Of a stretch of DNA of 4,312 bases, positions 3,184-3,501 are shown in pieces. The stretch is taken from the NCBI RefSeq assembly GCF_003334765.1, contig NZ_QOWT01000068.1; one strand, given 5' to 3'. Position 1 is the first letter of the stretch, and the number at the start of each line of letters is the position of its first letter. The notes beneath the pieces were generated by a model. That model made no database searches, was not told where the DNA came from, and saw only the letters and a list, made by a program, of their open reading frames with translations. The position numbers were made by a program, and so were the translations under genes. This DNA comes from Escherichia coli. Its GTDB lineage: Bacteria; Pseudomonadota; Gammaproteobacteria; Enterobacterales; Enterobacteriaceae.

Positions 3184-3439
3184 AAGCATGTTTCTGGCGG
3201 TCATAGCTCTATCGGCAAAGCGATATTTGCCATGGCGCGTCACAGTTCTGTTGAATGGGTTAATGGGCAGGAGGGTAACACCAGATGGGGAGGAATAATA
3301 AGAAAAAATCTCTGCCAGGAAGCTATCGTTGAAAAGCAATGTGACAGATATTCCATCTGATAAAAAGAATTATGGTTTAGCAGGAGCGCATTGTTGAGCA
3401 CAATGATGTTGAAAAAGTGTGCTAATCTGCCCTCCGTTC

Positions 3440-3501
3440 GGCTGTTTCTTCATCGTGTCGCATAAAATGTGACCAATAAAACAAATTATGCAATTTTTTA
3501 G
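3440..3501 (+). promoter_or_regulatory. AT-rich upstream region of the tRNA-tufB promoter (candidate UP element / FIS-dependent upstream activating sequence)
   Basis: AT-rich tract (..GCATAAAATGTGACCAATAAAACAAATTATGCAATTTTTTAG..) immediately upstream of the -35 hexamer. Stable-RNA promoters in E. coli typically carry UP elements and FIS sites here, and the thrU-tufB operon is reported to be FIS-activated. Individual FIS sites cannot be pinpointed by eye. Confidence 0.35.

Follow-up and report, generated by a model that had tools for sequence, protein, structure and literature searches.

The 20-codon reading frame and inverted repeat between coaA and thrU of Escherichia coli are probably incidental to the FIS-dependent upstream activating region of thrU-tufB

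The DNA analyzed here, a stretch of 4,312 nucleotides that we call the window, is 100% identical to E. coli K-12 and aligns to NC_000913.3, in which the record coordinate equals the window position plus 4171843. In the MG1655 record the gene order is the end of rrfB, murB, birA and coaA (- strand), followed by thrU-tyrU-glyT-thrT-tufB; ARAGORN and Rfam place the four tRNAs, Thr(UGU), Tyr, Gly and Thr(GGU), at 3545-3986. The divergent genes coaA and thrU are separated by a spacer of 361 bp (Table 1). An earlier note on this DNA had pointed out a 20-codon open reading frame (ORF) in this spacer, preceded by AGGAG and overlapping at its start a short inverted repeat. All of these coordinates are exact: the ORF runs from ATG to TAA at 3403-3465, AGGAG lies at 3382-3386, 16 nt before the ATG, and CATTGT-TGAGC-ACAATG at 3389-3405 is its own reverse complement except for the 5-nt centre, with the ATG at 3403 inside the right arm. 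The interval 3389-3465 does lie in the coaA/thrU divergent region, between both genes, and the ORF is indeed upstream of the tRNA promoter, the interval spanning -149 to -73 from a predicted +1 at 3538. Unmentioned in that note is another start of the same frame, TTG 3391, which would give 24 codons and stands 4 nt after AGGAG.

The MG1655 record has no CDS between coaA (b3974) and thrU (b3976), and the 60 E. coli records listed, of the 5,367 that match, annotate nothing at the matching position. Coding sequences down to 16 aa, such as ilvX, are annotated in the MG1655 record. The spacer has no Rfam hit at E-values up to 1, the window as a whole returning the four tRNAs and sub-threshold noise, and no terminator-like site was found in 3100-3620.

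Table 1. Coordinates of the features discussed, in positions of the window
Feature	Position	Strand	Remarks
coaA (pantothenate kinase)	2233..3183	-	ATG at 3183; divergent from thrU
Ultra-conserved block upstream of coaA	3262..3310	-	in coaA sense: TTTTTTCTTATTATTC, 6-7 variable nt, CATCTGGTGTTAMCCTCCTGCCCATT
Shine-Dalgarno-like AGGAG	3382..3386	+	specific to the E. coli lineage
Inverted repeat CATTGT-N5-ACAATG, 6+6	3389..3405	.	lineage-specific, dispensable
Frame of the ORF opened at TTG, 24 codons	3391..3465	+	sole start within reach of AGGAG, 4-nt spacing
ATG ORF, 20 codons, ATG ATG TTG ... GCA TAA	3403..3465	+	encodes MMLKKCANLPSVRLFLHRVA; judged an incidental open frame
Candidate FIS site III, GTTGAAAAAGTGTGC	3408..3422	.	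centre 3415 = -123; same register in 52/78 loci; overlaps ORF codons 2-7
Candidate FIS site II, GGCTGTTTCTTCATC	3440..3454	.	centre 3447 = -91; same register in 14/78 loci and 6/6 Escherichia
Predicted FIS site I, GCATAAAATGTGACC	3460..3474	.	centre 3467 = -71; five critical positions kept in 78/78 loci
A+T-rich tract between site I and -35	3475..3501	+	70-100% column conservation, 78 loci; UP-element position
thrU core promoter (from sequence)	3502..3538	+	-35 TTGCAT 3502-3507, 17-bp spacer, -10 TAGAAT 3525-3530, discriminator GCGCGC; near-invariant, 78 loci
thrU, tRNA-Thr(UGU)	3545..3620	+	first gene of thrU-tyrU-glyT-thrT-tufB

A scan for CoaA in one genome per species yielded 80 loci, and thrU was found upstream of coaA in 77 of them. 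Five of these loci belong to other Escherichia species or clades, each with a spacer of exactly 361 bp; with the window they form the six sequences of our Escherichia comparison, and the wider alignment comprises 78 enterobacterial loci. Across those 78 loci the stretch 3461-3544 is almost invariant, 3405-3455 is conserved patchily, in islands, and upstream of 3404 conservation drops to about 30% per column. Within Escherichia the spacer is free of indels, and 46 of its 66 variable sites fall in 3364-3483, with 18 in the most variable 30 bp (3364-3393). This clustering of variable sites, together with the collapse of conservation upstream of 3404, puts the ORF and the inverted repeat where the spacer is least constrained. 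The conserved parts are covered by a block of coaA promoter and 5' untranslated region on one side and by the upstream activating region (UAS), an UP-like tract and the core promoter of thrU on the other, and the description of the spacer as otherwise unexplained was therefore wrong for most of its length.

On the coaA side, the block at 3262-3310 is probably the -10 region of coaA together with the start of its mRNA. Its downstream half is present in 72 of the 78 loci, and a strongly conserved -10-like TATTAT (3301-3296, - strand) precedes a CAT start that is likewise conserved and lies about 104 nt upstream of coaA. No conserved RNA structure was found in the block. A 15-codon ORF on the + strand, at the strong AGGAGG-N10-ATG (3269-3287), was rejected as a candidate: 1-nt indels occur right after its ATG in several genera, and such indels in the variable spacer of the block argue against a + strand ORF.

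On the thrU side, the start of transcription is predicted at A3538, since the tyrT start is the 8th nucleotide after the -10 hexamer. The position, composition and conservation of the A+T-rich tract at 3475-3501 suggest that it could serve as an UP element. A UAS is expected at about -60 to -150 from a tRNA or rRNA promoter whose discriminator is G+C-rich, and the interval 3389-3465 lies in that zone. Descriptions of the thrU(tufB) upstream activating region, and of how it depends on FIS, go back to about 1990. The Bosch laboratory is said to have defined the region between 1987 and 1992 by deletion analysis and FIS footprinting. FIS contributes to the growth-rate control of thrU (Husnain and Thomas, PMC2885671), and it binds a thrU site, "thrU-87", an experimentally verified site of 10.9 bits whose off-rate was measured (Shultzaberger et al., PMC2018646; citing Bosch et al. 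1990). The site predicted here at 3460-3474 need not be the same as thrU-87.

The FIS consensus, Gnn(c/t)(A/g)(a/t)(a/t)(T/A)(t/a)(t/a)(T/c)(g/a)nnC, has five critical positions (PMC2885671), and site I fits it at all five, near -71. Matches at the critical positions have a background rate of 0.0077 per position. The pattern GnnnRnnWnnYnnnC occurs five times in the 75 bp of 3400-3475 (spans 3408-3474), compared with 40 times in the 4312-bp window. The motif is degenerate, and a stricter 15-bp pattern gave 12 matches in the window versus 10.75 expected. As a control, the scan of tyrT recovered the known site I at -71 (with +1 at the G of GCTTCCC) and missed sites II and III; with one of three known sites recovered, the scan on critical positions appears specific but not sensitive. 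Predicted FIS sites often fail to bind (Husnain and Thomas, PMC2885671). Candidates II and III, 20 and 52 bp from site I, match this degenerate motif and are kept in 14 and 52 of the 78 loci, respectively, site II being the weakest of the three because so few loci retain it. We infer that these three sequences may be occupied by FIS.

The ORF begins at the upstream edge of site III and ends midway through site I, so that its TAA (3463-3465) is part of site I. The first base of this stop codon, T3463, occupies position -4 of the site, at which both C and T agree with the consensus; C is the base in all other Escherichia species and in the commonest versions of site I across the 78 loci. The "20-codon ORF" of E. 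coli is thus the product of a C-to-T change at a position of site I where the FIS consensus accepts either pyrimidine.

The length of the ORF is itself unremarkable. At 42% G+C, at least 19 sense codons follow about 31% of ATGs, by arithmetic from composition, and the 361-bp spacer contains six ATG-initiated ORFs of at least 20 codons, or seven with any start codon. These ORFs overlap on both strands, and so at most one could be coding. Folding of the RNA from 3378-3470 gave a z-score of -0.04, no better than shuffles, and fold stability, a terminator scan and Rfam revealed neither a structured RNA nor a terminator in the region of the ORF and the palindrome. The coordinates are real, but nothing in the ORF, the AGGAG or the palindrome rises above chance.

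An alternative that we consider very unlikely is that the ORF is translated nonetheless, as a young peptide of 20 aa (from ATG 3403) or 24 aa (from TTG 3391) confined to the E. coli lineage and expressed from an unannotated + strand promoter in the spacer. The AGGAG is well placed for the TTG, and a promoter-like GTGACA-18-AAGAAT at 3341-3370 (+ strand) would start an RNA just upstream of it. However, the promoter scan returned two sites where 0.9 are expected by chance, and no known + strand promoter lies upstream of the ORF. The AGGAG is present only in the window and in one other Escherichia sequence, L006, which is near E. coli; the remaining four read TGGCG, TGGCA, TGGCA and GGAAG. The relatives hence do not keep a ribosome-binding site at a functional spacing: the motif is absent from four of the five, and the 16 nt that separate it from the ATG are non-functional. 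The ATG also lies inside a hairpin arm.

Retention of the start and the frame within Escherichia would favor translation, the start codon at 3403 being ATG in five of the six sequences and GTG in the sixth, and the frame being open in all six. Four of the six have CAA or CGA in place of the TAA, and there the frame continues for 32 codons to a TAG at 3499-3501 that abuts the -35 hexamer. Frameshifts and stop codons, which the earlier note had named, together with missing ribosome density, as grounds for refuting the ORF, are not seen in these six sequences, but stop-free runs of at least 20 codons common to all six sequences exist in five of the six frames, which are equally well "preserved"; because the spacer has no indels within the genus, and because five of six frames are open in all six sequences, the open frame is uninformative. 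In E. coli, moreover, the ORF was shortened by 12 codons through a change within a FIS site.

The substitutions themselves show no sign of a coding sequence. Variable sites among the six Escherichia sequences are spread over codon positions 1, 2 and 3 of the ORF as 6, 8 and 8. Summed pN/pS is nominally lower in frame (0.48) than in either of the other two frames (0.65 and 0.71), but coaA from the same genomes gave 0.02, and none of its 20-codon windows went above 0.13. At the nucleotide level the ORF has diverged (0.186) about as much as coaA third positions (0.165) and five times as much as the flanking spacer (0.036-0.038). The synonymous bias that had been proposed as a check was accordingly not observed within Escherichia, and no purifying selection on the peptide was detected. 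Sampled E. coli SNPs in the ORF include five nonsynonymous changes (V12I, L16F, C6Y, V19A and M1I) versus two synonymous ones.

Outside Escherichia, neither the ATG nor a corresponding ORF is present in Citrobacter or the other genera aligned. The frame is not specifically retained beyond the closest relatives, and within Escherichia its length varies between 20 and 32 codons. The C-terminal extension, QNVTNKTNYAIF, resembles frames in distant genera, for example ...VQNVSDRTFCAIF..., but those frames are a different ORF; genera without the ORF show the same apparent conservation of the extension, which thus reflects promoter DNA. The QNV(S/T)...AIF frame looks "conserved" across genera only because the DNA beneath it comprises FIS site I, the UP-like tract and the -35 hexamer. 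Codon positions 1, 2 and 3 are all conserved in the islands of conservation within the ORF (TGAAAAAGTGTGC and TTTCTTCATC), as constraint at the DNA level predicts.

External evidence for the peptide was likewise not found. Exact look-up of the 20-aa, 24-aa and 32-aa versions in a collection of 15 billion proteins returned nothing, and a full-text search with the peptide sequence found no paper. The main text of Weaver 2019 does not mention the locus, and neither the peptide nor coaA/thrU is among the entries listed from the "Cryptic Bacterial Microproteome" supplements. Among the Cappable-seq entries listed, none falls at these coordinates. Hundreds of small ORFs are translated in E. coli, most of them without selection (Stringer et al. 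2021), which is a point in favor of translation; the lack of a CDS in MG1655, and of any annotation in the listed records cited above, is a point against it. On the comparative sequences, the small-ORF reading is not supported. The idea that the ORF is what remains of a gene lost from the spacer was also discarded. The extra spacer gene of Kosakonia, Atlantibacter and Buttiauxella is on the coaA strand and encodes a GNAT-like protein of 182 aa; it is unrelated to the frame of the ORF.

As for the inverted repeat, the spacer contains three perfect 6-bp inverted repeats (loops of 0-10 nt), compared with a mean of 1.08 in shuffled spacers, and at least one occurs in 57% of shuffles. The perfect dyad is found only in the window (E. 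coli) and L006. The right arms of the other four Escherichia sequences read AGAGTG, AGAATG, ATAATG and AGAATG, and these differences make the perfect dyad a recent feature of the E. coli lineage. Even within E. coli it is dispensable: strain ChlosBP-23-1 has lost the left arm through a 12-bp deletion between GAGC direct repeats, and in isolate CB6886 the substitution G3405A breaks the right arm and turns the first ATG into ATA.

These observations make it highly improbable that the palindrome is an operator for a dimeric transcription factor controlling coaA, thrU-tufB or both. Such a reading could appeal to the perfect 6+6 dyad and to its location, at about -141 relative to the start predicted for thrU and about -110 relative to the probable one of coaA, both plausible for an upstream regulator. 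It could also appeal to a genomic SELEX peak for NtrC (63% intensity) that, after coordinate conversion and at low resolution, falls at about window position 3470 (PMC8743547); the coaA/thrU spacer is also in the combined RpoN/NtrC target table of the same study (PMC8743547). However, the centre of that peak lies about 70 bp from the palindrome. The palindrome is presumably unlike the NtrC consensus. It sits, furthermore, within the most variable 30 bp of the spacer, the arms pair at only four to five of six positions in the other Escherichia, and nothing can be aligned to it beyond the genus. The dyad is neither rarer than chance nor conserved in orthologous control regions. The suggestion that the interval could be a regulator-binding site within the upstream activating region consequently survives in part: the interval belongs to the UAS, with conserved FIS-type sites at 3408-3474, but the palindrome, which is unconserved, at chance level and deleted or mutated in natural strains, is not supported as such a site.

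It is also unlikely, if somewhat less so, that the palindrome overlaps the -35 element of a secondary coaA promoter (- strand; TCAACA 3397-3392, CATAAT 3374-3369), from which transcription would start at about 3362 and give a leader of about 180 nt. The two hexamers match the consensus at 9 of 12 positions across a 17-bp spacer. In the other Escherichia the -35 reads TTAACA (5/6), and A2 and T6 of the -10 are kept in three of four. However, this is a consensus match of a kind found twice where 0.9 are expected, the segment is unconserved outside Escherichia, and TATTAT at 3301-3296 with its CAT start is the better conserved and likelier coaA promoter.

The interval 3389-3465 belongs to an element of a known kind, and the literature identifies this element as one already known, the FIS-dependent UAS of thrU-tufB. 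We think it quite likely that the interval is mostly this UAS, that the ORF is incidental, and that the AGGAG and the palindrome are accidents of the lineage. FIS dimers would bind the three helically phased predicted sites near -71, -91 and -123. By analogy with tyrT and rrnB P1, bound FIS may bend the DNA and contact RNA polymerase, helping it at a promoter with a G+C-rich discriminator, and activation through the UAS would couple tRNA and EF-Tu output to growth conditions. The ORF would be one among several frames left open by chance in the A+T-rich DNA of the UAS, and its stop codon would derive from a C-to-T substitution at position -4 of FIS site I, a position that tolerates both pyrimidines. 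The AGGAG and the 6-bp palindrome would have arisen recently in the E. coli lineage, in the fastest-evolving stretch of the spacer (3364-3404), between the control regions of coaA and thrU. We regard as extremely unlikely a combination in which the recently gained AGGAG and palindrome act with the weak promoter at 3341-3370 to yield a translated RNA within the FIS-bound UAS, that is, a very young gene for a peptide of 20-24 aa, with translation or transcription across the UAS modulating thrU-tufB or coaA.

To what was already described for this region, the ORF and the palindrome add nothing that is backed by comparative data. The negative outcome is nevertheless useful, as it indicates that this spacer does not belong in lists of small-protein candidates on sequence grounds. 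It also illustrates that a conserved promoter can mimic the conservation of a peptide, and that a stop codon can arise by neutral change inside a protein-binding site. Should the ORF prove to be translated, it would be one more case of pervasive, unselected translation.

Several known systems can be set beside this locus. The non-conserved translated small ORFs of E. coli identified by Ribo-RET and Ribo-Api (Stringer et al. 2021; Weaver et al. 2019) are, like this one, short, intergenic, lineage-restricted and without purifying selection; however, they have direct evidence from ribosome profiling, whereas the present ORF is known from sequence and is absent from the curated MG1655 annotation. 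The withdrawn ORF_f51 (- strand, 3525-3370) and the "6K protein (rts 5' region)" (- strand, 3401-3240) are chance ORFs of the same spacer that were once annotated and that overlap the interval discussed here, although both are on the opposite strand, are longer and are gone from the RefSeq MG1655 record. The closest parallels are found among stable RNA promoters, the FIS sites of tyrT lying at -71, -91 and -122 and those of rrnB P1 at -71, -102 and -143 (PMC2885671). Like thrU, rrnB P1 has a FIS site at -71, an A+T-rich tract at about -40 to -60, a core promoter and growth-dependent activation, but the spacing of its distal sites differs, and at thrU a UP function of 3475-3501 is suggested by composition and conservation. 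The tyrT UAS likewise serves a tRNA promoter with a G+C-rich discriminator and shares with thrU a FIS-type site at -71 and the helical phasing of the sites beyond it, which at thrU are the two candidates 20 and 52 bp farther upstream; the two sequences are not alignable homologues, however, and the tyrT sites have been footprinted, whereas sites II and III of thrU are predicted.

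Besides the stretch that carries the 20-codon ORF under study (3403-3465), the coaA/thrU spacer holds a block of ~45 bp upstream of coaA that is near-invariant among ~78 enterobacterial species. This block looks like the -10 region of coaA with the initial ~30 nt of the coaA transcript after it. A CCUCCU run resembling an anti-Shine-Dalgarno sequence occurs within the block on the coaA-sense strand, and the block lies at a distance from the coaA ATG that varies among loci from 80 to 134 nt. The same block holds, opposite coaA, a 15-codon ORF that we considered as a coding candidate and rejected, as several genera have 1-nt indels directly after its ATG, which argues against a coding role. 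The positions of these and other features of the spacer are collected in the table.

Features of the coaA/thrU spacer, in window positions
Feature	Position	Strand	Remarks
Conserved block	3262-3310	coaA-sense	TTTTTTCTTATTATTC, 6-7 variable nt, CATCTGGTGTTAMCCTCCTGCCCATT
15-codon ORF	3269-3332 (ATG at 3285)	+ (opposite coaA)	Strong AGGAGG-N10-ATG; within the ultra-conserved block
Hypothetical 6K protein (rts 5' region)	3240-3401	-	Formerly annotated protein, 53 aa
ORF_f51 (MG1655)	3370-3525	-	Formerly annotated protein; database cluster with at least 1000 contigs
ATGCAA-N8-TTGCAT	3488-3507		Perfect inverted repeat; covers UP-like tract and thrU -35 hexamer

Natural variants of the spacer occur within E. 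coli. In strain 1442, an IS3-like element, ISEc52, is inserted at ~3315 and separates the probable coaA -10 region from the rest of the spacer, sparing 3315-3545 and the upstream activating sequence of thrU. Strain ChlosBP-23-1 has a 12-bp deletion between GAGC direct repeats (equivalent to ~3384-3396), by which the left arm of the CATTGT-TGAGC-ACAATG palindrome is lost and AGGAG is brought to 4 nt before the ATG at 3403.

Other inverted repeats were seen in coaA/thrU spacers. The 20-mer of the repeat at the thrU -35 hexamer is found unchanged in 32 of the 78 loci, and most of the remainder carry a close variant of it. Nine genera or species (coaA loci L019, L021, L024, L025, L027, L039, L040, L072 and L075) have an 8-bp palindrome, ATGCTTTC-N4-GAAAGCAT, that lies 5' of the coaA promoter block, ~150-190 nt upstream of coaA; E. 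coli has it only in a decayed form, TTGCTTTTCAACGATAGC. With regard to known regulators, genomic SELEX identified the coaA/thrU spacer as an NtrC target with 63% intensity, and it likewise appears in the combined RpoN/NtrC target table (PMC8743547). The reported NtrC position (4,173,336 in older MG1655 numbering) corresponds to ~3470 in the window, and no sigma-54 or NtrC consensus was convincingly apparent in the sequence.

Both formerly annotated proteins of the spacer, ORF_f51 and the 6K protein, are chance ORFs. Their entries persist in protein databases, and the current MG1655 record lacks locus tag b3975.

In many assemblies the coaA/thrU locus lies on separate contigs of ~4.1-5.3 kb bounded by an rrn operon and tufB. 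Since the ends of the window are the limits of such contigs, the 4312-base window is probably itself a repeat-bounded contig of this kind.

Finally, coaA-thrU spacers of 1050-1091 bp (loci L021, L023-L027, L030, L039, L040, L066, L072 and L076) contain an extra gene on the coaA strand, encoding ~170-199 aa (182 aa in several), whose product has weak, sub-threshold matches to GNAT acetyltransferases. Its hosts include Kosakonia, Atlantibacter, Buttiauxella and Entomohabitans, among others, and E. coli lacks it. An additional Salmonella gene in the coaA-thrU interval, STM4141, has been described in a published paper.
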